IMG/VR virus record: IMGVR_UViG_3300020045_004185
Location: 1 to 29,157 of that record
Source of the DNA: a virus
Taxonomy: Duplodnaviria > Caudoviricetes
Length of the DNA: 29,157 nucleotides
Direction: 5' to 3' (one strand)
Of the stretch, positions 1 to 12,027 are shown piece after piece. The notes beneath the pieces are model-generated. The model was not told the DNA's origin. It made no database searches and was given only the letters and a program-made list of their open reading frames with translations. How positions within the stretch are numbered: the stretch's first letter is position 1; the number at the start of each line of letters is the position of its first letter. The position numbers and the translations under genes were made by a program.

Positions 1-199
1 CAGCAGGCCCAACAAAAAGAATTTTAATTTGAGGTTGGCTGATTAAAAAATCATATTGTGGTTTATGACCACAGTTAAAAATAAGGAAATAGGTGTCTTT
101 AGTGTTTAGATTGTCAGCGAGTTTGTAGCCTTCCCAAAACCAACCATTCTTGCTGTACACACTTTGGACAATAGAATTAACCGTCCCGTTGACAAACAT
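1..199 (-). CDS. hypothetical protein, partial (runs off left end)
   Basis: Read manually: ATG at 199 overlaps the upstream stop (TAATG); frame MFVNGTVNSIVQSVYSKNGWFWEGYKLAD... stays open to base 1. Confidence 0.55.
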   Translation of the reverse strand, partial: MFVNGTVNSIVQSVYSKNGWFWEGYKLADNLNTKDTYFLIFNCGHKPQYDFLISQPQIKILFVGPA

Positions 200-450
200 T
201 ACCAAACCTTCCTAATAGCAGCGGTAATTGGGCCATTCTTAGTTTCAATTACTTTTACAAGAGTGTCATTAGTGTCCTGTTCTTCAGCAACACCAGCATA
301 CAAACTAATCCCGAATTTAGTGTTTGCTTCTTGACGTGCCTTAAGTTTTCCATTCCAGGTACTACCACAACAATAGCAAACAGGGCTACCAACACGTGTA
401 GGGTACTCTCGTCCACTTTTGTTATATGGCGTGTAAAGATACATTCTCAT
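199..450 (-). CDS. hypothetical phage protein (83 aa)
   Basis: ORF track; ATGA overlap with upstream gene, GAGGA SD-like motif. Confidence 0.6.
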   Translation of the reverse strand: MRMYLYTPYNKSGREYPTRVGSPVCYCCGSTWNGKLKARQEANTKFGISLYAGVAEEQDTNDTLVKVIETKNGPITAAIRKVW

Positions 451-632
451 TCTTCAATGTCCTCATCATCGTCTTCAAGAATTGGTGTGTTCATCAAGTC
501 GGGCCGTCCCCGAACTGGAATGTTCAAATCTTCAAGACAGGTGGAACAGGTGTCCATAAACTCCTGAGTTACTGCATGTCGAAGGGTTGATTCAAAATCA
601 GACAAAGCACGGTTGCAGCAATAACACCTCAT
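447..632 (-). CDS. small Cys-rich (Zn-binding) phage protein
   Basis: MRCYCC...CSTC, acidic tail; GAGGTG SD-like motif before ATG 632. Confidence 0.65.
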   Translation of the reverse strand: MRCYCCNRALSDFESTLRHAVTQEFMDTCSTCLEDLNIPVRGRPDLMNTPILEDDDEDIEE

Positions 633-781
633 ACACACCTCAGCGTTGCATAAACTTTACGATAGTCAATCCAACCAAAAGAATAGCGAGTAGTAATAGT
701 GTGGGGATATTCTGTGGTGCAATAGGAACATGAGCTACGCCCATCTTCATGTGGGGCGCCACATGATTTACAAAAATGCAT
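629..781 (-). CDS. 50-aa zinc-ribbon protein (not in ORF track)
   Basis: MHFCKSCGAPHEDGRSSCSYC...; AGGAG upstream; overlaps both neighbours. Confidence 0.6.
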   Translation of the reverse strand: MHFCKSCGAPHEDGRSSCSYCTTEYPHTITTRYSFGWIDYRKVYATLRCV

Positions 782-901
782 CACTTACTACTCTCCTGAT
801 TAAAATACTTAGACGGAAGACATGTCAACCACATAGGATGGTGCTCATACCAAGGCAGTTTAGTATCGGGATGTGGAACAATATCAATTAGTTTAGTGAT
901 T

Positions 902-922
902 GGTGCGTTTATACGTATGTTA
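902..922 (-). repeat. terminal half-site of cassette array B (putative attI-like site)
   Basis: TAACATACGTATAAACGCACC, 20/21 identical to 11374-11394; no matching right arm found. Confidence 0.75.
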
Positions 923-931
923 TACTTTATA

Positions 932-1189
932 CTACAGCGAATCAAATTCAGCTTGGCATTTATTAAGCATATCCTTACATTCAAGCAATATTATTTTATA
1001 AATGGTTTTGCTTACATTCTCTGGTATAGTAGTAAAATACCCATCTTGTCTTGTTCCAAGCGTATTTAAAATCCCATCTCTACTTTTAAAAGAATCGCTC
1101 AAGGCATGCTCAAGCACTTTAATGTCATCCCTTAATTGTTCAATTTCTTCTCTTAGCTTATTAGCTCTTTTTAAATTTTCTGTTTTCAT
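932..1189 (-). CDS. hypothetical coiled-coil protein; cargo of cassette B
   Basis: 85-aa ORF flanked by 13/14 complementary ends (919-932 and 1209-1222). Confidence 0.75.
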   Translation of the reverse strand: MKTENLKRANKLREEIEQLRDDIKVLEHALSDSFKSRDGILNTLGTRQDGYFTTIPENVSKTIYKIILLECKDMLNKCQAEFDSL

Positions 1190-1218
1190 ATTTTAGTTTT
1201 TTATTAATGTACAAAGTA

Positions 1219-1291
1219 TAACCTCGTATAAACCAAATTACCACACGTCCTCACACACCGCCAAAGTAACTTGAGTTTATACGTATCGTTA
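1219..1291 (-). repeat. attC-like hairpin site B1
   Basis: Minus strand: TAAC-GATA-CGTATAAAC(T)CAAGTTAC...GTAATTTG-GTTTATACG-AG-GTTA, with one bulge and one G:T pair. Confidence 0.75.
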
Positions 1292-1594
1292 TTAAAACAA
1301 TCTAAGCTGTTTATCCTTGTTCTTAATAAATCCGCTACCTGATATATGCTTTTGGCAATAGAAAAATATAAACCCGCTTTCGATCTTTAAAAATATATCT
1401 CCTATTCTGTAATCGTTTCTTTCTGGTTTTTCGTTACAAAAATTACAAAACGGCTCAAACTTAACTTTTTTACCTTCTATCATATAATAGTTTTGATGGG
1501 TAAGTCTAAATGTTTGGCCTTCTTTTCCATTGATTAAATAATCATCCAGATAAGGCTCTAAAGATGTATTTACCAATGGAAGTATATTTCTCAT
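1292..1594 (-). CDS. hypothetical protein with CxxC motif
   Basis: ORF track; ATGA overlap; ends QLRLF. Confidence 0.7.
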   Translation of the reverse strand: MRNILPLVNTSLEPYLDDYLINGKEGQTFRLTHQNYYMIEGKKVKFEPFCNFCNEKPERNDYRIGDIFLKIESGFIFFYCQKHISGSGFIKNKDKQLRLF

Positions 1595-1914
1595 AACGTT
1601 TTTTTAACGGCTTCAATGAACTCCAATGTACTTCCGATCTGCTTTGTGCTTTTAATATGCCCTGTAATCATCTGTGTAAACTTAACCGGGTGTAGGTTTA
1701 TAAGTTTAGCCAGCTGGTTATACTTTACATCTTGGCTTTCTATCCACTCCCTAAATTCATTCAGTGATTGCATGCTAAATTCGTTTTTCAGTATTGTCAA
1801 TACCTGCTTCTTGTTTAGCTCTATATGGCCCGTATCTTCGATATGAATTAAAAACTCATTGCGATCCGATGCCTCAACCCGTGTTATAATATCCTGAATT
1901 TCTAAGCTGTCCAT
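1591..1914 (-). CDS. hypothetical protein, possible C-terminal HTH
   Basis: VKYNQLAKLINLHPVKFTQMITG resembles an XRE-type HTH. Confidence 0.6.
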   Translation of the reverse strand: MDSLEIQDIITRVEASDRNEFLIHIEDTGHIELNKKQVLTILKNEFSMQSLNEFREWIESQDVKYNQLAKLINLHPVKFTQMITGHIKSTKQIGSTLEFIEAVKKTL

Positions 1915-2108
1915 TATGAAAAATTTATAAAATCATTACTTTCGGTCACTGTGGGTTCTGGTTTGTCATGCTTTTTAAATACATTATCCCATTTCTCGGA
2001 CTTTTTGAACCTTACATAAAGGTAGATAAACAAGCCTATGTTTAATAAACATAGTGTTAAAATAATATTTTCCATAGCTTTAAATTTTAGTTGAGTAAAG
2101 TTAAACAA
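1914..2108 (-). CDS. small membrane protein (true start probably MENIIL)
   Basis: Single hydrophobic segment followed by a basic stretch. Confidence 0.55.
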   Translation of the reverse strand: MFNFTQLKFKAMENIILTLCLLNIGLFIYLYVRFKKSEKWDNVFKKHDKPEPTVTESNDFINFS

Positions 2109-2125
2109 TTATTTTTAATATACAA

Positions 2126-2623
2126 TTACTTTATATTAAATTTTTTACACCAATAGAGTAAATCAACCATCCGCTGGCACATTTCTGCATGAAGACATAC
2201 TCCTTTGTAAGTGTTTACACTGTTTAGTTTTTCAACTCTTTTAGTCCATATTTCGGCCAACTGCCTTAATGTGGTTGTTTTTGTTCCATACACTTTCAGT
2301 AGCCATGAAATATAATCATAGTCATATTTAACCCGCTTTTCAGTTTCGATATAGTTTTGTATTCGCTTTACTGCATTTATAACAGTTGCATGGTTTACGT
2401 TTGTAAGTTCTCCAACCTGCATAAGTGAGTATTTTTGCCTTAAAAAGAATTGTAGCATCTGTCTTTTTTCAAGTATTTCGGCTTTCCTTGTCTTGCTTAA
2501 TATGGTTGCCTTATCGGTTCCATAATATTCGCAAACTATTTTAGTTATTTTATTGTGGTCCATGTTTAATAATTTAGGTACAACGTTATTTAATAAGTTT
2601 ACTCCTCTGTTATTCGTTTCCAA
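2126..2623 (-). CDS. DnaA C-terminal-like HTH DNA-binding protein
   Basis: IVCEYYG...ILSKTRKAEILEKRQM...SLMQVGELTNVNHATVINAVKRI matches the DnaA domain IV pattern. Confidence 0.75.
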   Translation of the reverse strand: METNNRGVNLLNNVVPKLLNMDHNKITKIVCEYYGTDKATILSKTRKAEILEKRQMLQFFLRQKYSLMQVGELTNVNHATVINAVKRIQNYIETEKRVKYDYDYISWLLKVYGTKTTTLRQLAEIWTKRVEKLNSVNTYKGVCLHAEMCQRMVDLLYWCKKFNIK

Positions 2624-3003
2624 TCTGGAAAATCTATTTTAATATCAAAAACTTTAGCAAATAGCATCATTACCATTTCAACCAGTTCGCTAAATTCTTT
2701 TGTGTCTAACTGCTTTTCTTTGCCAGGAAACATATATTGCCTTAATGGGTTCCAATATATCGAATAAAGATTATCCTTTGTAAAAGGTACTTCTAATTTA
2801 GTTCCCGGAGGCTGAAAAGTTTGCCCTTGTTCTTTCAATATACTTGCAACCATTTCCAAATACAACCATCTTGCACTATTTTGGTTATTGGTCCGGGTTG
2901 CTTTCCATTGGTTAAGCTCCACCATCTTTTTATTTTCGAGCATGTGTTTTGACTGCTGGTTAAATAAATAGACTTCGTTTGGATTTTCTAAATTGTAGAT
3001 CAT
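2599..3003 (-). CDS. NinB-like recombination protein
   Basis: RTNNQNSARWLY motif and C-terminal LDTKEFSELVE...IDFP. Confidence 0.55.
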   Translation of the reverse strand: MIYNLENPNEVYLFNQQSKHMLENKKMVELNQWKATRTNNQNSARWLYLEMVASILKEQGQTFQPPGTKLEVPFTKDNLYSIYWNPLRQYMFPGKEKQLDTKEFSELVEMVMMLFAKVFDIKIDFPDWKRITEE

Positions 3004-3332
3004 CGGTGCGAATTTAAAAAGTCAACTAATTGTATTCTTTCGCTTACTACTTTTTTAATCTGTTCCCATGTTGCAAACTCATCCATTTGCTGTGGTGTGT
3101 ACCTTAAAACTGCCCAACCTAATTCAACTGCTTTGTCGTATTTTTCCATGTCGTTTAAATAACCTACTCCACGAGTATGTCGGCCCCGTGAAAATATACC
3201 TCCTTCAATCTCTATGGCTGTTTTACTTCCAACGTGTGCAAAATCGAAACGCCAACGCCTTTCACAAAATCTGAACTCAGGCTCAAAGTTATAGCCCGTT
3301 GCTTTGTTTAGTATTAAGTTTTGTAAGTTCAT
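3000..3332 (-). CDS. PD-(D/E)XK (Vsr/DUF559-like) endonuclease
   Basis: PEFRF..RRWRFDFA...AIEIEGG...GRHTRG...DMEKY..A...GW.VLR. Confidence 0.8.
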   Translation of the reverse strand: MNLQNLILNKATGYNFEPEFRFCERRWRFDFAHVGSKTAIEIEGGIFSRGRHTRGVGYLNDMEKYDKAVELGWAVLRYTPQQMDEFATWEQIKKVVSERIQLVDFLNSHR

Positions 3333-3568
3333 AAACTTATAGGTTTTAATTTGCGTTCTACTTCTTCTTTGGCATATTCATAACCCATCGTAAAAAAATA
3401 TCTTGCATCTTCATCGTTTACCTCTGGTAATTCCATGCTTTTTGCAATTTGGCTGGCCTCAATATTATAATCGCAAGTAGATACAATTTGCATTACTTCT
3501 TTTTCATCCAACTCAGGAAGCAAATCTTCCAATGGATATTCATTTTTATAAATTTCACTTTTTTTCAT
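3329..3568 (-). CDS. hypothetical protein
   Basis: ORF track; ATGA overlaps on both sides. Confidence 0.65.
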   Translation of the reverse strand: MKKSEIYKNEYPLEDLLPELDEKEVMQIVSTCDYNIEASQIAKSMELPEVNDEDARYFFTMGYEYAKEEVERKLKPISL

Positions 3569-3825
3569 AAGTTCCCTAAATGTATATCAGTTAATTGTTC
3601 CTTTGTGTAAATATTTGCATGAGCCAGGTTATGGCATTTTCTGCATAGTGCTATCAGGTTTTCAATGTTATCCTGTTTATTTTTGGTTTTGGATCCGAAC
3701 TTTGATCGTGGTATAACGTGGTGAATATCTATAGCTTTTGAACCACATCCCGGGATTTCACATATTATAAAATCTGCTATTGTATAACCAAAATAGTTTA
3801 GGTATGTTTTTACGTGTGGTGTCAT
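3565..3825 (-). CDS. HNH endonuclease
   Basis: CEIPGC...DIHHVIPRS...NLIALCRKCHNLAH. Confidence 0.85.
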   Translation of the reverse strand: MTPHVKTYLNYFGYTIADFIICEIPGCGSKAIDIHHVIPRSKFGSKTKNKQDNIENLIALCRKCHNLAHANIYTKEQLTDIHLGNL

Positions 3826-3827
3826 GA

Positions 3828-5309
3828 TTAAAATGGAATAGGTTCGTTAAATTTATCCTTTTCGTAAAAGTTTCTATTGTTTTCTGCAATAGGTTTTTGA
3901 ATTTCAACCGGTGCAAAAGGCTCTTCTATTTCTGTATAATCGAAAAACTGTGTTAAACTTTCGTTATATCTAAATAGGCAATCACCGGTCATTCCGTTTC
4001 TTTGCTTTGCAACTATCAACTTGCCAACGCCTTTTAAACTGTTACCGTTCCCATCGTTTTCTAATCCGTAATATTCAGGCCGGTGTATAAATATAACATT
4101 GTCGGCATCCTGTTCAATGGCTCCGGAATCCCTTAAATCTGAAAGTTGAGGCCTTTTATCCCCTCCCCTTTGTTCAACATTTCGGCTTAATTGGCTCAAT
4201 AATATAACAGGTATATCCAACTCTTTAGAAATGATTTTAGCGGCCCGGCTTGTTTGGCTTACATCCTGTTCACGGTTTTGTTTGTTACCTCCGGACATAT
4301 CCATTAACTGCAAATAATCAATAAAAATCATGTCGCATTTACCCAACTTTTTCATATTCCGGGAATGGGTTTTTATATAGTTGATTGAAACCATTGAATT
4401 ATCATCAATGTAAATCGGTAATTCTGATACATCATTAACGCCTTTTTCAATACCAGTCCATTCAATCGGTGCTATCTTACCACTCCTATAATTCGATGCG
4501 TTTAAATCGCCTAATTTTATAATTAATCTATCCGTTAAAGATATATCGCTCATTTCTAATGAATAGATACAAACACTTTTGCCGGACCGTGCAGCCGATA
4601 CCGAAAAATGAAGCATTAAAGCTGTTTTACCCATTGCCGGTCTTGCTGCTAATATGGTTAATTCTGAATTGTGCCAACCTTGCAACATACGATCAGAATC
4701 GAATAATCCAGTTGTTATTCCGATTGATTTTCCGGCTTTGTGGTTTATGTTCCTTTTTTCGGCCTCAACAATACAACGCTTCGCAATCTCTTTAACATGT
4801 TGGATTTTGTTTTTACCGGAAACAAGTTTGTTTATGTTTTCAAGTTCTTTGTTGCTAAAATCAATTAAGTCGGAAACATCTTCAAAATCATCAAAAGAAT
4901 CTGAGTATATTTTAGAACTGTATTTTATCAACTCCCTTTGAATGTATTTTTGATATACTATTTGGCAATGATAATCGAAGTGCGAAGTTGAGGCCACTTT
5001 ATTAACCAGCTTTGAAAGTTCAAACGGACCGCCAACCTTTTCTAAATTACCAGAATTTTTAAGTTGGTTTGATACCGTAAATAAATCAATAGGGTTGTTC
5101 TTATCGTTAAGGCTTATTATTGCCTCGTATATCAATCCGTTGGCATCTTTATAAAAGCAGTCCTTTGATAGTATCATTTCCTTATCTTTTATTAAGGATG
5201 TTTCCAACATTAATGATCCAAGAATAGACTCTTCAAATTCAATTGCCTGAGGAGGTACTTTTCCCATATCTTGTACCCGCGAAAAAGTCGCTGATGATTG
5301 GTTTGTCAT
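3828..5309 (-). CDS. dnaB: replicative DNA helicase DnaB
   Basis: PPQAIEFE N-terminus, Walker A AARPAMGKT, IDYLQL, LSQLSR, SDLRDSGAIEQDAD, AKQRNG. Confidence 0.95.
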   Translation of the reverse strand: MTNQSSATFSRVQDMGKVPPQAIEFEESILGSLMLETSLIKDKEMILSKDCFYKDANGLIYEAIISLNDKNNPIDLFTVSNQLKNSGNLEKVGGPFELSKLVNKVASTSHFDYHCQIVYQKYIQRELIKYSSKIYSDSFDDFEDVSDLIDFSNKELENINKLVSGKNKIQHVKEIAKRCIVEAEKRNINHKAGKSIGITTGLFDSDRMLQGWHNSELTILAARPAMGKTALMLHFSVSAARSGKSVCIYSLEMSDISLTDRLIIKLGDLNASNYRSGKIAPIEWTGIEKGVNDVSELPIYIDDNSMVSINYIKTHSRNMKKLGKCDMIFIDYLQLMDMSGGNKQNREQDVSQTSRAAKIISKELDIPVILLSQLSRNVEQRGGDKRPQLSDLRDSGAIEQDADNVIFIHRPEYYGLENDGNGNSLKGVGKLIVAKQRNGMTGDCLFRYNESLTQFFDYTEIEEPFAPVEIQKPIAENNRNFYEKDKFNEPIPF

Positions 5310-5940
5310 TGGTAGTATTTTTAGTGTCGTTTTTTAAATGTGGAATAGTATTTAGTAAAGTTGATTTCCAGTTTAAAATTGGTTTATTTAATCCAGTTTT
5401 CCAACCGTTTTCAATCCATGAATCGTATTTAAGTTTTAAAGCCTGTTTATTAAGTAATGGTTCTTTTTGTAAAGCATAAGATTCAAATTCAAAATAATCA
5501 GGACGGATGGGTTTTATTATTCTTTTACTTTCTTTTACTTTACTTTCCTTTACTTTAATAGTATCGTTTCGTATTTCGTTCGTATACGATGGTAATACGT
5601 TCGTATTATTCCATCTCTTACTAATTGATTCTTTGGCCTTTAAAGATTTTAATTCCATTGACATTTTAAGCCTTTCGGAATAAAAAAACTCTTTATTTTC
5701 AATAATGAATAGTGAATAGTTTAATACTACTGCCTCAACTTTTTCTTTTGATGTTCCCCACCTTCTAGCAAATGAACCGCAAACTAACAAAGGTAGTTTA
5801 TAATCTTTTTCAGCTCTTAATTTTTCAATCAATCCCCAAAATATGCCATAACCTTCCATTCCTAACTGGTCAATTAATAGCATACATTTTGGATCATCTT
5901 GGCTGTTAGCATCGTGGCTAAAATAATAAGCATCTTTCAT
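5239..5940 (-). CDS. replication initiator (DUF4373/Lin1244-like N-terminal domain)
   Basis: MKDAYYFSHDANSQDDPKC...GMEGYGIFW.LIEKL; directly upstream of DnaB; ATG 5940 preferred over the track start at 5982. Confidence 0.8.
   Translation of the reverse strand: MKDAYYFSHDANSQDDPKCMLLIDQLGMEGYGIFWGLIEKLRAEKDYKLPLLVCGSFARRWGTSKEKVEAVVLNYSLFIIENKEFFYSERLKMSMELKSLKAKESISKRWNNTNVLPSYTNEIRNDTIKVKESKVKESKRIIKPIRPDYFEFESYALQKEPLLNKQALKLKYDSWIENGWKTGLNKPILNWKSTLLNTIPHLKNDTKNTTNDKPIISDFFAGTRYGKSTSSGN
5522..5612. repeat. short tandem repeats inside initiator gene (candidate origin)
   Basis: Repeated TTTACTTT units followed by repeated TTCGTAT units. Confidence 0.4.
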
Positions 5941-5941
5941 A

Positions 5942-6577
5942 TTATTTAATTTGTTTATAGTGCCACATCCTACGCATTTCATTTATCAATTCATCAAATG
6001 AACGAATATAACCCATATCAACGGCAAACGCAAGTTTATTTTGAAGGTCAGTAAGTTCCTTTAATTGTATCTCATTTGCTTTTTGTCTTAAATCGGTATC
6101 ATGTAACCCGAAAACAATATAGTTCAATCCTTTGGCAACCTGTGCAAAATTAACATTATTAAAACGTGTTAATGCCTTTGTCAATCCCCTGTAATTATCT
6201 CCGGCATCGTGTCTAAATTGGATTAGTTGGTCATAAACAAAACGTATAACATCGTATTTAAAACGTGGATTAATCCACATTGCAAAGTCAATGAACAAAT
6301 ATGGGTGCATCCAGGTTTCTCCTGCTATTTTAGAACCGTCTTTATTTGTTTTGCATTTGGAAACTGAATAGGCAGAATCACGACTTACCTCATTATCAAG
6401 TACTTGCAAGAACTCTTTTGTTTGATTTAAATCCATAAAATGAGTAACTTTTTTTGTCATTCCAGTTGATTTATTCCATTGCATTAATAATTCTCCTGCA
6501 TTAAACATACCATCCTTAGTCCTTTGTGAAACATCGAAAGAACCCATCTTTCTTACCATCGTTACGTTTGTTTTCAT
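5942..6577 (-). CDS. KilA-N domain protein (antirepressor-like)
   Basis: QRTKDGMFNA..L...TWMHPYLFIDFAMWINPRF. Confidence 0.85.
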   Translation of the reverse strand: MKTNVTMVRKMGSFDVSQRTKDGMFNAGELLMQWNKSTGMTKKVTHFMDLNQTKEFLQVLDNEVSRDSAYSVSKCKTNKDGSKIAGETWMHPYLFIDFAMWINPRFKYDVIRFVYDQLIQFRHDAGDNYRGLTKALTRFNNVNFAQVAKGLNYIVFGLHDTDLRQKANEIQLKELTDLQNKLAFAVDMGYIRSFDELINEMRRMWHYKQIK

Positions 6578-6590
6578 GTTTTTTTAAATT

Positions 6591-6696
6591 AAAAACCCTC
6601 TATGCTTTGAAGGTGGAAGGCTTCGCAGCATAAAGGGTAAATTAATAATGTTTTAGCTATCCGCTTCCACCCGGACTTATTAGCTTTACAAAGATA
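6591..6696 (-). promoter_or_regulatory. promoter and attenuator-like leader of the KilA-N gene
   Basis: TATCTTTG -7 box (6689-6696); terminator stem 6595-6638 followed by a T-run; GGTGGAAG/CTTCCACC complementary pair. Confidence 0.55.
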
Positions 6697-6706
6697 ATAA
6701 AATTAT

Positions 6707-7051
6707 TTAATAATCTGCATTTTTAATCCAGTTTTTTAGATCATATAAAACCATTTCATAATCAACATAGATTAACTTATTGTCTTTATACGTTCCCCAT
6801 TTAGTCATCAATTTAGTTATTATAGTATCATATTTGCCTATGTAATCCATCAACTCAATTAAAGCCTCACATTGCTCGTTTATTTCGTAAACAATCATTT
6901 CGTTATCTGTATCCCATTTTTCAACAGCATACGCTTTTATCTCTGAATAATATTTAGGTAAATTTGTTTTGACTATAATAGCCGATTCATTGATTTGAGC
7001 ATTACCAAACATAGCGATACTCATTAATGCGATAAATAGTAGTTTTTTCAT
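6707..7051 (-). CDS. hypothetical exported protein
   Basis: Signal peptide MKKLLFIALMSIAMFGNA-Q typical of Bacteroidota. Confidence 0.75.
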   Translation of the reverse strand: MKKLLFIALMSIAMFGNAQINESAIIVKTNLPKYYSEIKAYAVEKWDTDNEMIVYEINEQCEALIELMDYIGKYDTIITKLMTKWGTYKDNKLIYVDYEMVLYDLKNWIKNADY

Positions 7052-7073
7052 GGTAATAATTTATTAGTTTTTT

Positions 7074-7100
7074 AAAAACCCCGGCAACAACACCGGGGTT
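7074..7100 (-). terminator. intrinsic terminator
   Basis: AACCCCGG-loop-CCGGGGTT followed by Ts on the - strand. Confidence 0.6.
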
Positions 7101-7243
7101 CACCCTCAAATTACAACACGGATGGGATCGGCTCCGCTCACCTTTAATGTTTTAGCCGGAACCATAACCGGCAATTGTTTCAAAGACAATTTTACATTTT
7201 GTTTTTACCGGAATCGAAACCGCCCGGGCCACGGCTTAATATT

Positions 7244-7534
7244 TTAAAAAGGTAATTGGTCCAATGAATCGTTATCAACCTCATTTGTAAAAGGTGTCTG
7301 GCTTTCAGAAACGGCCTTTTTTTCAAACGAATAGAGTTTTCCGCTACCTATGTACTGTTTATCCTTTTTCGCTTCTCTATCCTCTTTGGATTGCGAAATA
7401 TAAACGGTGTGGGTATTACCGTAATTGTCCGGTGCTTTCCTTTCATCAACTATCAAAGTGATGTAGCTTCCTTTTTTTCCTATAAAGATCTGATCTTTTG
7501 GAATCTCGCTTAGATTAATGTTAATTGCTATCAT
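7244..7534 (-). CDS. putative single-stranded DNA-binding protein
   Basis: GKKGSY, DNYGNTH and YIGSGK motifs; acidic C-terminus ending DQLPF. Confidence 0.65.
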   Translation of the reverse strand: MIAININLSEIPKDQIFIGKKGSYITLIVDERKAPDNYGNTHTVYISQSKEDREAKKDKQYIGSGKLYSFEKKAVSESQTPFTNEVDNDSLDQLPF

Positions 7535-7535
7535 A

Positions 7536-7670
7536 TTAAGTTAAAATTAGGTGACGATTAAATAATTGTTCAAGTTCTTTTCCTTGTTTGTTATACCACT
7601 CTTCGGCCTCTTTTCGTGTTTTGAATATCCCGGAATAAGGCTCTAATATACCTCTTTTATTTTTACTTCT
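7536..7670 (-). pseudogene. 5'-truncated orphan reading frame
   Basis: Open frame RSKNKRGILEPYSGIFKTRKEAEEWYNKQGKELEQLFNRHLILT* with no ATG; overlaps the end of 7643-7984. Confidence 0.35.
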
Positions 7671-7984
7671 CTAATCCGCAAACATTCCACATCATCGCCC
7701 TTTAATTTGGTAACTGCTGCATAAATAGTAATTGATTTACCGGCCCAATCTTCAATAAATGGACTTTCGTATATCTTGGCAATAGTCCTACAATTGGTTC
7801 GGTTTAAAATCAATGGTTTATTTCCTTCGATGTGTGCAACTGTGCATTCTTCAGATTTACCGTTTTGCCCTTTTACGATTTCACGAACTACTTGTTTGAT
7901 TTTTATGGTAATATCTTTACCGTCAGGCAGTGAATAAGCCCCTAAATAGTCAGGGTTTACGAGTTGTTTCCAGTGTGTTTTCAT
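7643..7984 (-). CDS. conserved phage protein, putative recombination/ssDNA-annealing factor
   Basis: THWK...PDYLGAYSL, KPLILNRTN, IEDWAGK.I.IY, CLRIR motifs; lies next to the SSB-like gene. Confidence 0.6.
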   Translation of the reverse strand: MKTHWKQLVNPDYLGAYSLPDGKDITIKIKQVVREIVKGQNGKSEECTVAHIEGNKPLILNRTNCRTIAKIYESPFIEDWAGKSITIYAAVTKLKGDDVECLRIREVKIKEVY

Positions 7985-7988
7985 AATT

Positions 7989-8207
7989 CTAATTTGTTAG
8001 TGTTTTTAAATAACGTTGTTTCAGCCTATCGATACACATCCTATAAATAATAAGGTCGTGTTCATATTTCTGTTTCAAATCAGGATGCCAGTTTTGTAAA
8101 GCATGGATGCTTTCTGCTCTGCTTTTAAACAGTGTTTCAAACGTTGCAATTGCCTCAACAATCTCAATACATGTTTGATGCTTTTCAATTAGTTTTTTAG
8201 TGTCCAT
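7989..8207 (-). CDS. hypothetical protein
   Basis: ORF track; operon spacing. Confidence 0.65.
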   Translation of the reverse strand: MDTKKLIEKHQTCIEIVEAIATFETLFKSRAESIHALQNWHPDLKQKYEHDLIIYRMCIDRLKQRYLKTLTN

Positions 8208-8210
8208 AGG

Positions 8211-8399
8211 TTACCTCGTTTCTTCTAAATATTCACTGTAATAATCATCATCAAAGTTTCCATAGTTCGCTTCGGCTCCGCAATCTGTGCAGAAAAAATC
8301 ATCGTCTAAAATACCGCCACATTCCTGGCATAATTTAGGTTCGTCTTGTTCATAAGGTGCTGTTGGCATAATGTTTAGTTTTAAAGTTTGATAGACCAA
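8211..8399 (-). CDS. small acidic zinc-ribbon protein (start probably MPTAPY)
   Basis: CQECG...CTDCG. Confidence 0.6.
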   Translation of the reverse strand: MVYQTLKLNIMPTAPYEQDEPKLCQECGGILDDDFFCTDCGAEANYGNFDDDYYSEYLEETR

Positions 8400-8427
8400 A
8401 ATTAAACATTATTTTTTAATTAGCAAA
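8396..8427 (-). promoter_or_regulatory. leftward Bacteroidota-type promoter
   Basis: TTTG...TAATTTTG on the - strand at the head of the early operon. Confidence 0.5.
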
Positions 8428-8468
8428 CTTTTTATGCAATTTATATTCATTATAAATAACAATATTTA

Positions 8469-8500
8469 TTTGTATATTAAAATTATTTGTTTAATTTTAC
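8469..8500 (+). promoter_or_regulatory. rightward promoter reading into cassette array A
   Basis: TTTG...TAATTTTA; near mirror copy of 8396-8427. Confidence 0.5.
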
Positions 8501-8524
8501 ATCAATAAAGAATAACGATTTATA

Positions 8525-8648
8525 TAACGTATACGGATATGTGCAGTGCCGATATTAAAACTCGCACGAACTTTAATAAATAGTAATATGAAAACTAAAC
8601 AGAAAAAAGTAAAAAAAGATAAAAAGGCATTGCATATAGCCGATATTA
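8525..8648 (+). repeat. attC-like site A1 (124 nt)
   Basis: TAAC..CGGATATGTGCAGTGCC / GGCATTGCATATAGCCG..ATTA (core G replaced by A). Confidence 0.7.
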
Positions 8649-8731
8649 GCAAATCGTTTTGTGTTGTGTGCAAAACCGAACCAGCAGTAATTAAAGGACG
8701 TTGTTGTACCTGCCACTACGATTGCCCTTGA
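8588..8731 (+). CDS. cassette 1: 47-aa Cys-rich protein starting inside site A1
   Basis: MKTKQ...ALHIADISKSFCVVC...CCTC. Confidence 0.55.
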   Translation: MKTKQKKVKKDKKALHIADISKSFCVVCKTEPAVIKGRCCTCHYDCP

Positions 8732-8746
8732 TTACAAACTGTTTGC

Positions 8747-8870
8747 TAACGGTGTGGCTAACCGTAGTTGATGGAAATTGAAATATTAACTTTTAAATTT
8801 ATAAGACATGGATTTATTTACCGAACTTGGAAACATACTTAGGCCTGAAATTACGGTTGAGCCAGTGTTA
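8747..8870 (+). repeat. attC-like site A2 (124 nt)
   Basis: TAAC..TGGCTAACCGTAGTT / AATTACGGTT(G)AGCCA..GTTA, one extrahelical G. Confidence 0.75.
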
Positions 8871-9023
8871 TGCACAGGTTTTTACCGTTGTGGGTATTGT
8901 GGGCAACCTACTGATAAGGATGGAAGGCCATTAGATTATGAAGAATATAAATTGTTTACTGAGGATAATTTAAGTGATGCGGAAGCGGTGCATGGTTATT
9001 GTTGCCCACCAGAGCAATGGTAA
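8808..9023 (+). CDS. cassette 2: Cys-rich hypothetical protein starting inside site A2
   Basis: CGYCG...HGYCC; stop just before site A3. Confidence 0.65.
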   Translation: MDLFTELGNILRPEITVEPVLCTGFYRCGYCGQPTDKDGRPLDYEEYKLFTEDNLSDAEAVHGYCCPPEQW

Positions 9024-9031
9024 CTTATGCC

Positions 9032-9154
9032 TAACATTAAATGTATGAAATGTAGGCGGATAGGAATTACTGCCTTATCCGACTGCACGAACTAAATAGA
9101 AAGTAGAAAAGTATAAACCTGCACTGAACCGCCTATATTTTATACATATTGTTA
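9032..9154 (+). repeat. attC-like site A3 (123 nt)
   Basis: TAAC..ATGTATGAAATGTAGGCGG / CCGCCTATATTTTATACAT..GTTA. Confidence 0.8.
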
Positions 9155-9182
9155 GGCGTATGTGCTTTAATTTAAAATCGAA

Positions 9183-9416
9183 ATGATACATAAAGTTGAA
9201 ATGTTTACAATCAAATGCGATAACTGCGGAAAGTTATTCGAGGATGAGCATCAAGGATTTTGCGCTTGGAACTGTGAGAATGGAGCTTGGGATAATGCAA
9301 GTGATTCTGATTGGCATAAAGAAGATTACAATATTCATTATTGCCCCGATTGCTATTCTTTTGATGATGAAGATAATTTAATTCTCAAAAAAGTCGATGC
9401 CGATGCTGTTTCTTAG
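9183..9416 (+). CDS. cassette 3: Zn-finger-like hypothetical protein
   Basis: CDNCG...W...HYCPDC. Confidence 0.75.
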   Translation: MIHKVEMFTIKCDNCGKLFEDEHQGFCAWNCENGAWDNASDSDWHKEDYNIHYCPDCYSFDDEDNLILKKVDADAVS

Positions 9417-9425
9417 CATTACACC

Positions 9426-9549
9426 TAACGGTTCGTGTATGATTAGTAGCGGATTACGAGTGATAAACTTTCAAAATATAACAAATGATTGAACGAGATA
9501 CAGAACTTCAAAATAGCACTGAAACCGCTATTAATTATACACGGTGTTA
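9426..9549 (+). repeat. attC-like site A4 (124 nt)
   Basis: TAAC..CGTGTATGATTAGTAGCGG / CCGCTATTAATTATACACG..GTTA. Confidence 0.8.
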
Positions 9550-9610
9550 TAAGCCGTATTTGTTTGATTGTCAATTTAAAGTAAAATATTTTGAAAATAA
9601 ATAGCTTTTT

Positions 9611-9645
9611 ACTTGTATATATCATATATATTATATATCTTTACT
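9611..9645 (+). promoter_or_regulatory. internal promoter/operator of cassette 4
   Basis: TTG...TATCTTTA flanking the near-palindromic ATATATCATATATATTATATAT. Confidence 0.45.
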
Positions 9646-9675
9646 TCATAATTAATAACAATTAAAAATACGATT

Positions 9676-9918
9676 ATGAAAGCAACTATTAGTCAATTAT
9701 GGGAAACTGGACGTGAACTTATAAACTTTGATGGTGATGAATTTGAACGCCCACAGTCTTTTGCAGATTTGAAAAAATGTGAAAACGTGCTTTTAGGTGA
9801 TAAAATACCAGGAACAAAGATGCGTGAAGTGCTTATAGATAATTCTATTGTACTTGTTGAACCTATGACAGTAAGACACCCAGCAGGTGGAACCATGTAT
9901 ATACTCGAAGTACAATGA
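9676..9918 (+). CDS. cassette 4 gene a: hypothetical protein
   Basis: ORF track; A-rich leader. Confidence 0.7.
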   Translation: MKATISQLWETGRELINFDGDEFERPQSFADLKKCENVLLGDKIPGTKMREVLIDNSIVLVEPMTVRHPAGGTMYILEVQ

Positions 9919-10055
9919 AAAAAATAATAGATATACCAGAAACCATACTGCAAGAACTCAAAATCCTTGCAGTAAAATCGAATAAAGACTTGAAAAATTT
10001 TATTCAGGACGAACTTAAAAAACTTGTCGAAAACTCTCAATCGAAGCCGTCTTAA
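9915..10055 (+). CDS. cassette 4 gene b: 46-aa ribbon-helix-helix-like protein (not in ORF track)
   Basis: MKKIIDIPETILQELKILAVKSNKDLKNFIQDELKKLVE; ATGA overlap; stop abuts site A5. Confidence 0.7.
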   Translation: MKKIIDIPETILQELKILAVKSNKDLKNFIQDELKKLVENSQSKPS

Positions 10056-10064
10056 TATGGCTTA

Positions 10065-10180
10065 TAACGGTATGCGTATTGGCGTTGTTGCTAACACGAA
10101 TGTTAAATTGAAATACAAAACTTGATAATATGGAAAAAGATAAATTGAAAAACAAAAGCAATAACGCTAATACGCTGTTA
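10065..10180 (+). repeat. attC-like site A5 (116 nt)
   Basis: TAAC..GCGTATTGGCGTTGTTGCT / AGCAATAACGCTAATACGC.GTTA. Confidence 0.8.
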
Positions 10181-10396
10181 TGTGCTGATAATTTTACGGG
10201 TTACTTCGATGATGCTAACAAACCAATTTTTGTTGGTGATAAATTAAGAAGTGAGTGGAATTATGAAGTAATTGTAGTAAAAGACGAAGATGGTGATTAC
10301 AGCGGGAAATTGGTTTGTGATGATAACCACAGTTGTAAAAATATTCCTTATGCTTTAAATAAAGGCAAAGGTTATAGTAAAATTATTTGCACATAA
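10130..10396 (+). CDS. cassette 5: YopX-like C-terminal domain protein starting inside site A5
   Basis: FTGYFDDANKPIFVGDKL resembles the YopX motif TGLKDKNGKEIYEGD; its TAA stop is the TAA of the next TAAC. Confidence 0.6.
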   Translation: MEKDKLKNKSNNANTLLCADNFTGYFDDANKPIFVGDKLRSEWNYEVIVVKDEDGDYSGKLVCDDNHSCKNIPYALNKGKGYSKIICT

Positions 10397-10517
10397 CGTT
10401 TGGTGCTATGAGCAGTGCAGGATTAGAAACCACAAAACTATCAAATTATGATGAAGTTAATAAATAGTACAAACATTGAAAAACGCAGAAACCCTGCATT
10501 GCTTATAGCACGTGTTA
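10394..10517 (+). repeat. attC-like site A6 (124 nt)
   Basis: TAAC..GTGCTATGAGCAGTGCAGG / CCTGCATTGCTTATAGCAC..GTTA. Confidence 0.8.
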
Positions 10518-10557
10518 GGTGTCTGTATTTTTTAATTTTTTTAGGGGGGCTTTTTTT

Positions 10558-11322
10558 ATGATTTTACGAAGATTAGGAAATAAACAAATGATTGCTGAAA
10601 AAATACAAAAGCAATTTCCGAGCCATAATATTTATATTGAACCTTTTTTCGGTGCTGGTGGTATGTTTTTTAACAAACCAAAAGCAAAATATAATATCGT
10701 AAATGATTTGGATTCTGATGTTTTTAACTTATTTCAAGTTGTAAGCACTCGATTAGATGAACTGAAAAAAGCATTTGAATTAATGCCTATTCATTCGGAC
10801 TTACTCGAATATTGGAAAACAAATACAGAAGAAGAACCAATAAGAAAGGCACTAAGGTTTTTATTTATGAGCAATTTTACATACTTAGGTAAAGGAACAA
10901 CCATTGGGCTTGTTTGTGGAGATAGTAAGGGATTTTTAATGAGCAAAATTGATGAGACTGCAAAGTTTTTATTTGATGTGCAGTTTGCAAATTTTGATTT
11001 TAGAAAATTTATAAACAGCCTTTCTTTTAGAGATGAAGTTGAGCAAAGCAAATCATTTATTTATTGCGACCCACCATATTTGGGAACAGATGATAATTAT
11101 TCACACTCATTTACTGAAAATGATAGCAGTGAATTATTTGATTTGCTTTGTAATTCTGGGTGCAGATTTGCAATGAGTGAATTTGACCACCCGTTTATAT
11201 TAAAACAAGCCGAACAAAGAAATTTAAATTTAATCGTAATAGGAGAAAGGAAAAACTTAAAAAACCGTAGAACTGAAATTTTAATTACAAACTATGAAAA
11301 TGCACCTACTCTCTTTTCCTAA
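10558..11322 (+). CDS. cassette 6: D12-class (Dam-like) N6-adenine DNA methyltransferase
   Basis: GNK, YIEPFFGAGG, NDLD and YCDPPY motifs; ATG 10558 preferred to GTG 10519. Confidence 0.9.
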   Translation: MILRRLGNKQMIAEKIQKQFPSHNIYIEPFFGAGGMFFNKPKAKYNIVNDLDSDVFNLFQVVSTRLDELKKAFELMPIHSDLLEYWKTNTEEEPIRKALRFLFMSNFTYLGKGTTIGLVCGDSKGFLMSKIDETAKFLFDVQFANFDFRKFINSLSFRDEVEQSKSFIYCDPPYLGTDDNYSHSFTENDSSELFDLLCNSGCRFAMSEFDHPFILKQAEQRNLNLIVIGERKNLKNRRTEILITNYENAPTLFS

Positions 11323-11373
11323 CGGTTTTGAAAAAACCGAGTGCGTGGGCAAAAAATTAAAAAATATTGCACC

Positions 11374-11394
11374 TAACATACGTATAAACACACC
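11374..11394 (+). repeat. terminal half-site of array A (putative attI-like site)
   Basis: TAACATACGTATAAACACACC; 20/21 identical to the reverse complement of 902-922. Confidence 0.75.
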
Positions 11395-11531
11395 TACTAC
11401 TTATGTTATTATCAATCAACTACTTAACTAATCTATTTAACATTTATATTATAGTCGTACAATAAACGTTTTTGTAATTGATAATCAACAACATATCCAA
11501 TTAAATTGCTAAACGTTTATAAACGGATAAT

Positions 11532-11556
11532 AAAAAAGCCGGGATATTAACCCGGC
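11532..11556 (-). terminator. intrinsic terminator after the lysis genes
   Basis: GCCGGG-7nt-CCCGGC followed by T6 on the - strand. Confidence 0.75.
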
Positions 11557-11589
11557 ATGAACTAAACTTAAACTATTATGAAAAAAAAC

Positions 11590-12027
11590 CTACCTAAACT
11601 TTGAGCGAATCAAAAGAAACATTATAATAACTATTAAAGCGATTGACAAATATAGTGATAATCTGGTTCTATTTTCTAATTTGTTGCTTAATTTATCGTT
11701 ATCCTTTTTCAATTGTTCATTCAATGGGTTAACTTTTGTAACCTCATTATTTATATAGATACTATCAATCTTTACTTTCTCATTGGTTTGGTAAACGGTT
11801 CGATCCCTGAAGACTATATTAGCAAAAGTATCAGTTTTGGTTATTATCGAATCAAAGCGGACTATCTCTTTTTCAAATTTGGTCTTGTATTCGATTTCTC
11901 GTATTGTATCCCCCGGCAGATATTCGATAGTTTTGCAAGTTACTGTAAAAAAAAATATAGCTATTCCTAATACTATTAGCATTATATAATGCAATGGGTC
12001 AAACTGTAAATTCTCTTTATGTGTCAT
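11590..12027 (-). CDS. putative spanin-like lipoprotein/membrane protein
   Basis: N-terminal hydrophobic stretch ending in TC, coiled coil, C-terminal TM; last gene of the lysis block. Confidence 0.55.
   Translation of the reverse strand: MTHKENLQFDPLHYIMLIVLGIAIFFFTVTCKTIEYLPGDTIREIEYKTKFEKEIVRFDSIITKTDTFANIVFRDRTVYQTNEKVKIDSIYINNEVTKVNPLNEQLKKDNDKLSNKLENRTRLSLYLSIALIVIIMFLLIRSKFR

Follow-up and report, generated by a model that had tools for sequence, protein, structure and literature searches.

Two gene arrays in a virus of the Caudoviricetes close with the same short sequence, and we estimate at about three in four the probability that this sequence is an attI-equivalent docking site for hairpin-headed gene cassettes, served by a Xer-like tyrosine recombinase that is absent from the record. 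The record, whose entire 29,157 nt constitute the window analyzed here, is 87 % complete and encodes DnaB, KilA-N, a portal-like protein and a Dam-like methylase; its host probably belongs to the Bacteroidota, as do those of the cultured phages with the same hairpin type. Each unit of these arrays consists of a TAAC...GTTA hairpin and, behind it, a gene body whose ends are complementary; an array opens with a full hairpin and closes with a half-site. Relatives keep both flanks of the array, and everything from the first TAAC-G to the last TAAC is swapped. The initial annotation of this DNA had proposed an attI-like site present at two loci, a proposal that comparison supports through the swapped cassettes, a class of sites adjacent to recombinases, the phage Leef_1 and the geometry of attI1. 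We infer that the site is a primary entry point for cassettes and not just a recombining boundary, and that it is functional today.

Terminal sites and the cassettes they close

The 21-mer at 922-902 on the minus strand (site B) recurs at 11374-11394 on the plus strand (site A) with 20 of 21 positions identical. The two copies are inverted and 10,451 nt apart, in agreement with the coordinates, orientation and spacing of about 10 kb first reported, and they are the only matches in the window at three mismatches or fewer, against 0.00 expected. Site B is composed of a TAAC core (922-919), a 5-nt spacer (918-914), the box TATAAAC (913-907) and a GCACC tail (906-902). Folding z-scores of +0.67 for site A, +0.45 for site B and -0.36 for the copy in the viral contig L020 indicate no fold.

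While the motif is present at both loci as described, its length of 21 nt did not hold, the conserved stretch being longer. Because site A matches L020 and a second viral contig, L013, ungapped over about 100 nt, the 21-mer is best read as the front of a longer conserved platform of that size; beyond the 21-mer, 46 of 79 positions are identical, which none of 5000 shuffles equaled. Two blocks of platform A are exact (12 nt at 11431-11442 and 10 nt at 11462-11471) and repeat a TAAC and an ATAAAC, and an IHF-like box lies at 11414-11426. Under the consensus that we assume for IHF, the motif is exact in site A, present in all four terminal-site copies and found at one mismatch in 18 of 34 recombinase leaders (shuffle mean 5.1, maximum 11). 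A perfect palindrome made from the box of the site occurs downstream of site A (11513-11524), and a palindrome of the box is also found inside the L020 and L013 platforms (L151:5010-5019); it is a possible accessory binding site.

Table 1. Coordinates of the features described in the window
Feature	Position	Strand	Remark
Foreign-looking DNA cutting platform B	1..880	.	GC 41 % versus 35 %
Stretch common to site B and the array ends of L013 and L020	881..922	-	42 nt at 95 %
Terminal site B, core	902..922	-	attI-like, non-folding
Cassette body B, 296 nt	923..1218	-	self-complementary ends, position-7 mismatch
85-aa cassette gene	932..1189	-	no Pfam, PHROG or NCBIfam family
73-nt cassette hairpin, putative attC equivalent	1219..1291	-	TAAC...GTTA; spacers 6 and 4 nt
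Fixed upstream phage gene, 100 aa	1292..1594	-	85 % identical in L151
Array A, six cassettes	8525..11373	+	ends at second copy of site
Array A hairpin 1	8525..8648	+	right end ATTA
Array A hairpin 2	8747..8870	+	
Array A hairpin 3	9032..9154	+	
Array A hairpin 4	9426..9549	+	
Array A hairpin 5	10065..10180	+	
Array A hairpin 6	10394..10517	+	
D12-class N6-adenine (Dam-like) methyltransferase	10519..11322	+	last cassette of array A
Isolated left-arm-like TAAC-G remnant	11320..11339	+	inside end of methylase cassette
Terminal site A, core	11374..11394	+	closes array A after Dam-type methylase cassette
Platform A, ~100 nt	11374..11473	+	ungapped homology to L020 and L013

The first TAAC of array B abuts the stop codon of the 100-aa upstream gene. 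The 73-nt hairpin placed by the initial annotation ahead of the 85-aa gene (1291-1219) was confirmed in coordinates and in fold: as single-stranded DNA it reaches -10.1 kcal/mol (z -3.5, equaled by none of 200 shuffles), and its gene-sense strand folds better than the opposite one (-10.1 versus -8.1). Both arms carry the same box as the terminal site. The left arm is the terminal site with one G added after TAAC and one substitution, and the right arm is an inverted copy of the site with a 4-nt spacer, one base shorter. The ends of the cassette body (1218-923) are complementary at 13 of 14 positions, GTTA/TAAC cores counted, again as reported, and the sole mismatch, at position 7 after GTTA, proved systematic across cassettes. 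The 85-aa protein has one other homologue (P0002, 69 % identity); the cassette was not found in other viral arrays.

To describe cassette ends across loci we examined 130 consecutive hairpin pairs and kept the 92 whose ends match at six or more of ten positions, a level attained by about 8 % of mismatched controls. Positions 1-5 pair in 92-99 % of these cassettes and positions 8-10 in 90-92 %, and because position 7 pairs in only 1 % of the 92, its mismatch is a feature of the cassette system. Pairing in the fetched loci spans positions 1-6 and 8-11. A second class of cassettes pairs with a 1-nt bulge and includes the last cassette of Leef_1 and the window's methylase cassette, the ends of which pair over about 20 nt. 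Homologous cassette pairs that would show a hairpin traveling with its downstream gene were sought and none passed the filter. Some cassette ORFs begin in the loop of the upstream hairpin, which then supplies the N-terminus (ATG at 10130 in the hairpin 10065-10180). A strand bias among wobble pairs in the detected hairpins (143 G.T versus 2 A.C) comes from the detector, which rewards wobble on that strand.

The Dam methylase gene of array A has a 72 % identical counterpart at L131:2067-2867 with different cassette ends and upstream hairpins, as if the two genes had been packaged independently. A 43-nt inverted repeat (81 %), also present in L151, lies just upstream of array A (8467-8509, plus strand) and three genes upstream of array B (2086-2128, minus strand); it may act as a common promoter, transcribing the two arrays from the ends opposite their docking sites. 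Promoter scans performed no better than chance, and no Rfam family was found in 1-12000.

Conserved flanks and exchanged cassettes

The only viral relative of the 100-aa upstream gene, 85 % identical in amino acids, lies on the same contig as L020, at the locus L151. L151 and the window share 78.5 % DNA identity over 1524 nt, up to 1278; identity breaks off at the TAAC-G that follows the stop codon and is regained at the terminal-site TAAC. Between upstream gene and site, L151 holds six cassettes, each with paired ends, and these have no protein in common with the window arrays (nine ORFs tested). In a short, low-depth contig from run X1 the upstream gene is shared as far as TAAC-G and then followed by another arm, and an equally short, low-depth contig from run X2 diverges at the stop codon, with 10 loose letters only. 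The junctions of these relatives at TAAC-G imply that the first hairpin would be part of the cassette and that the crossover would fall within TAAC(G), a position bracketed by orthologue junctions only. By sequence, the site B locus reads as orthologous and variable in content. The description of array B as a single-cassette array is thus correct for this record but not for the locus, since six cassettes are present in the orthologue.

Four copies of the site, namely A, B and those of L013 and L020 (two contigs with the same dataset number, weakly independent), each follow a different last cassette. The ends of that cassette are complementary over about 20 bulged nt at A and at 13/14, 8/10 and 7/10 positions at B, L013 and L020, respectively. 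Recombination at the terminal-site TAAC appears to have happened repeatedly, because four different self-complementary cassettes abut the four copies.

In L013 and L020 the site precedes terminase genes. The block of about 100 nt might on that account be a regulatory element, such as a promoter or operator of a terminase operon, in which TAAC is a secondary target for cassettes in the manner of attG. The accessible text of 10.1101/2022.09.11.507474 reports that IntI inserts at non-att genomic sites, and a recombinase follows none of the four copies. However, the gene downstream of site A is convergent and forms no operon with it, and the same geometry precedes recombinases at 34 of 34 loci and in Leef_1. 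Secondary sites, moreover, would not be expected to share the 7-nt box of the hairpin arms. We regard a purely regulatory block as very unlikely and retain the docking site.

Homology of site B to L013 and L020 runs for 41-42 nt and ends at about 881. The GC of the DNA beyond this point is reached by 6 of 274 other 880-nt windows and is alone no proof of foreign origin. ORF 447-638 within it has 48 relatives in other phage contigs without hairpins; at the five loci inspected the neighbors of these relatives are small genes of early type, with a primase-like gene after them, an arrangement that we take to be T7-like. For ORF 781-984 no longer homologue was found. Neither 1-900 nor 860-1300 matched isolated phages, and the terminase genes of L013 and L020 have no match in the window, where the 880 nt of higher GC are found instead. 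No contig of runs X1 and X2, which contain only 5-6 % of the words, spans the junction at 881, which is possibly an assembly chimera or a real recombinant.

Searches for the motif elsewhere separate long from short matches. A 16-mer scan of viral contigs returned 27 matches, two of which (L013 and L020) extend and close arrays; the other 25 are without an array, two of those loci having one unrelated weak hairpin. Five matches came from a degenerate 21-mer scan of the same contigs, L013 and L020 plus three without hairpins, and none from a motif scan of metagenomes. L033 has a second match, which does not sit at an array. We read the array-less matches as chance occurrences with nothing in common beyond the pattern. 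The idea that the motif always ends arrays consequently stands for the long matches (A, B, L013 and L020), every one of which is an array end, and not for the short ones. As a left arm of a complete hairpin the motif appeared in none of the 27 viral 16-mer matches, none of the three unrelated degenerate matches and none of the hairpins detected in the fetched loci, so that it is not commonly such an arm. The empty versions of the site that had been envisaged did not turn up in viral scans, in GTDB or in metagenome scans (0 matches; 590 candidates, none confirmed). Nor was there a clean empty site among 33 recombinase-adjacent sites, 27 being filled and six having weaker or bulged partners (L125, L129, L132, L134, L136 and L140).

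Mimics of dif are known from pdif modules, and host XerCD might recombine the site as one of these. The opposite strand of the site contains TATGTTA, which we take to resemble a XerD half-site, and recombinases neighboring related sites do score against XerC and XerD models, all of them below the cut-off. The heptamer is missing from most recombinase-adjacent sites, however, and the partners of the site are hairpins, which fold and vary in sequence. In addition, the exact 20-mer has a single match, without hairpins, in the 185,579 genomes of GTDB and none in Bacteroidota. No dif consensus for Bacteroidota turned up in the literature searched. We consider a dif mimic very unlikely.

Sites adjacent to tyrosine recombinases

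Arrays seeded by another hairpin of the window also end in non-hairpin TAAC sites. An array walk from 28 seed loci settled few ends (7 seeds that are not hairpins, 12 ends unresolved, 9 resolved with 2 duplicates). Of nine distinct array ends picked by eye, two have a recombinase after them and one (L038) is possibly a short hairpin. A search with those two recombinases gave 42 loci; five duplicates, one locus lacking upstream DNA and two partial matches were dropped, which left 34. In each of these 34 distinct loci a YAAC half-site is found 34-59 nt ahead of the recombinase start, an interval chosen after inspection. Over equal lengths, 80 hairpins lie upstream of the recombinases versus 4 downstream, and a cassette-start partner exists for 27 of 33 half-sites, compared to 3.5 % in the control.

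Terminal sites differ from hairpin arms in the base after the core, which is G in 80/84 left arms, A in 82/82 right arms and T or A in 30/34 terminal sites, and in the spacer, mostly 6-7 nt in left arms, mostly 4 nt in right arms and, in the odd register of terminal sites, best read as 5 nt. A three-class profile assigns 30/34 terminal sites, 83/84 left arms and 77/82 right arms correctly in leave-one-out tests. Both window sites fall into the terminal class, at -0.9 bits versus -8.4/-8.7 as left and -7.1/-8.3 as right arms, a terminal score that is weak in absolute terms: in leave-one-out tests 6 of the 34 true sites do not exceed it, and it is surpassed by at least 12 of the window's 328 TAAC sites. 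A class-separating rule, written after seeing the data and widened for the window's A at box position 5, selects 22/34 terminal sites, 0/84 left arms, 0/82 right arms and 3/328 window TAACs. The window tails were recognized neither by an ungapped profile of 16 recombinase-leader tails (p 0.07-0.53) nor by nhmmer, which found nothing significant (E 49 for site A).

These classes bear on whether the site is simply a decayed hairpin, that is, the left arm of the 73-nt family minus one G and its right arm, left as a passive end mark. Among 99 distinct hairpins the left arm at 1291 is by far the closest to the site (15.5 versus 8.5 for the next), a member of its family is present in another contig (run X2), and a weak 35-nt TAAC...GTTA stem is possible at site A (-2.6 kcal/mol). 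That stem has no counterpart in B, L013 or L020, however, and a decayed arm would account poorly for four different last cassettes ending exactly at the site or for about 100 nt of non-folding sequence conserved between site A and L020. With an A rather than G after the core, a 5-nt spacer as in recombinase-adjacent sites, no stem and the left-arm scores given above, the site does not group with left arms. The remnant at 11320 does, scoring 4.9 bits as a left arm versus -8.6 as a terminal site, and is, as far as its sequence tells, a decayed arm, unlike site A. The likeness of the 73-nt left arm to the site fits cognate site pairs better than decay, which we consider unlikely.

The docking-site reading receives further support from the Polaribacter phage Leef_1 (NC_062750), which lies outside the training set. 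Its hairpin cassette array, like those of the window, ends in a near-identical site, 58 nt before the integrase and with a terminal score of 5.7 bits; unlike the window, Leef_1 keeps a 287-aa tyrosine recombinase. Across box and tail, the Leef_1 site is identical to site B at 11 of 12 positions and that of L130 at 10 of 12, while the best left arm reaches 6. The half-site that ends the published CALIN of phage P12002L (L154:36900-39250) scores as right-arm-like and not as terminal.

The neighboring recombinases keep the catalytic motifs and are 264-293 aa long. Residues 197-227 and 240-249 of IntI1 are absent from 33 recombinases of the family and from that of Leef_1, and the two recombinases tested against TIGR02249 score 151-170 bits against a cut-off of 265. 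A recombinase beside the site, as looked for from the outset, is thus found for sites of the same geometry and not after any of the four copies themselves. In the 87 % complete record no tyrosine recombinase matches PF00589 and none starts at +56; five orphan-array records, 7-79 % complete and searched without a positive control, returned no recombinase either. A common dataset number links recombinase-bearing contigs to L013 and L020 and makes a supply of the enzyme in trans plausible.

Relation to integrons and a candidate mechanism

The phage system resembles an integron in its hairpin-bounded cassettes with complementary ends, the cassette sites being imperfect palindromes with AAC/GTT ends. 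In plasmid pLBC54, attI1 has the same 7-nt box, 5-nt spacer and GTT layout as the terminal site, and both attI1 and the recombinase-adjacent sites are non-folding array ends with a tyrosine recombinase reading away from them. The platform may also contain accessory boxes like DR1/DR2 of attI. The non-folding sequence, box, spacer and GTT core expected of an attI are found, the window copies being assigned by likeness with a weak absolute score. By contrast with integrons, whose cassette genes are read from a Pc promoter at attI and away from it, opposite to the integrase, phage cassette genes point towards the site, in the same reading direction as the recombinase; the hairpin heads its gene and its better-folding strand is gene-sense; end pairing covers 10-11 nt with a fixed position-7 mismatch; and the terminal site lies 34-59 nt from the recombinase start. 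An IntI integrase with its extra domain of about 35 residues is found neither in the record, which has no PF00589 match, nor in the family. Because the neighboring recombinases lack the IntI insertion, and because gene polarity is reversed, this is not a true integron, even if the site works like an attI. Set beside CALINs, array A counts six hairpins and array B one, with no integrase match in the record.

Such integrase-less cassette arrays were described in phages, with orphan DNA methyltransferases, by Qi et al. 2023 (PMC9892861), whose accessible text also reports that the Shewanella prophage M16-3 has attI at both integron and CALIN and that IntI1 mediated recombination of one P12002L site with attI1. 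The Polaribacter phage P12002L has TAAC...GTTA hairpins of the window type around its methylase genes. In its accessible parts that study treats the arrays as ordinary attC clusters and mentions for P12002L neither a terminal site nor reversed polarity nor a Xer-like recombinase. The attG sites of Loot et al. (10.1101/2022.09.11.507474) are, like the window site, double-stranded non-hairpin targets without a neighboring integrase; the accessible text presents them as greatly unlike att sites, whereas the window site is conserved, recurs where arrays end and shares the hairpin box. In the literature searched, mostly open-access papers, no description of the terminal site or of the system was found.

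Two plasmids carry related elements. In a Flagellimonas plasmid (NZ_CP092416, L157:2904-4995), a gene of the dihydrofolate reductase family stands between a hairpin of the window type and a further left arm; erm(F) comes next, then a TAAC half-site and a recombinase like xerA. Resistance genes of Bacteroidota plasmids may be among the cargo of the system. In a Chryseobacterium plasmid (NZ_CP041688, L156:4761-8007) hairpins of the window type are found downstream of a recombinase of 347 aa, with their genes on the other strand, a layout that differs from the phage arrays.

Recombination between attI and attC, as set out in the accessible text of PMC8946536, serves as the model for the mechanism we propose. 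The folded gene-sense strand of a circular cassette's hairpin would be the recombining strand, and strand exchange would take place inside TAAC, mirroring G|TT in attI1. The new cassette would insert just upstream of the duplex site with its gene facing the site, and older cassettes would be removed by hairpin x hairpin events. The 5-nt spacer would be the duplex counterpart of the 6- or 7-nt and 4-nt spacers of the hairpins, and the downstream stretch of about 80 nt would hold boxes bound by accessory proteins. The enzyme could come from a co-infecting phage or a host element, be encoded in the missing 13 % of the genome, or have been lost.

A likely receptor site can now be named for a phage gene-capture system that is integron-like with reversed gene polarity and whose recombinase is without the domain held to explain hairpin recognition. 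The mechanism is testable since the cultured Leef_1 supplies both the enzyme and a near-identical site. The likeness between hairpin arm and docking site is relevant to the origin of new cassettes, called unknown in the accessible text of Cury et al. 2016 (PMC4889954). The 73-nt hairpin might have been born from the docking half-site by duplication and inversion, in a phage with two enzyme-less platforms served in trans; such a birth is unlikely, and would offer a candidate route to integron-type cassettes. In the accessible text of Bartlau et al. (PMC8776804), the Leef_1 integrase is read as a sign of lysogeny, and 'integron' and 'cassette' have 0 occurrences in the main text. If enzyme-less sites work in trans, integrase-less phages could still swap methylases and other small genes, and an 'integrase' annotation in flavobacterial phages need not mean lysogeny.
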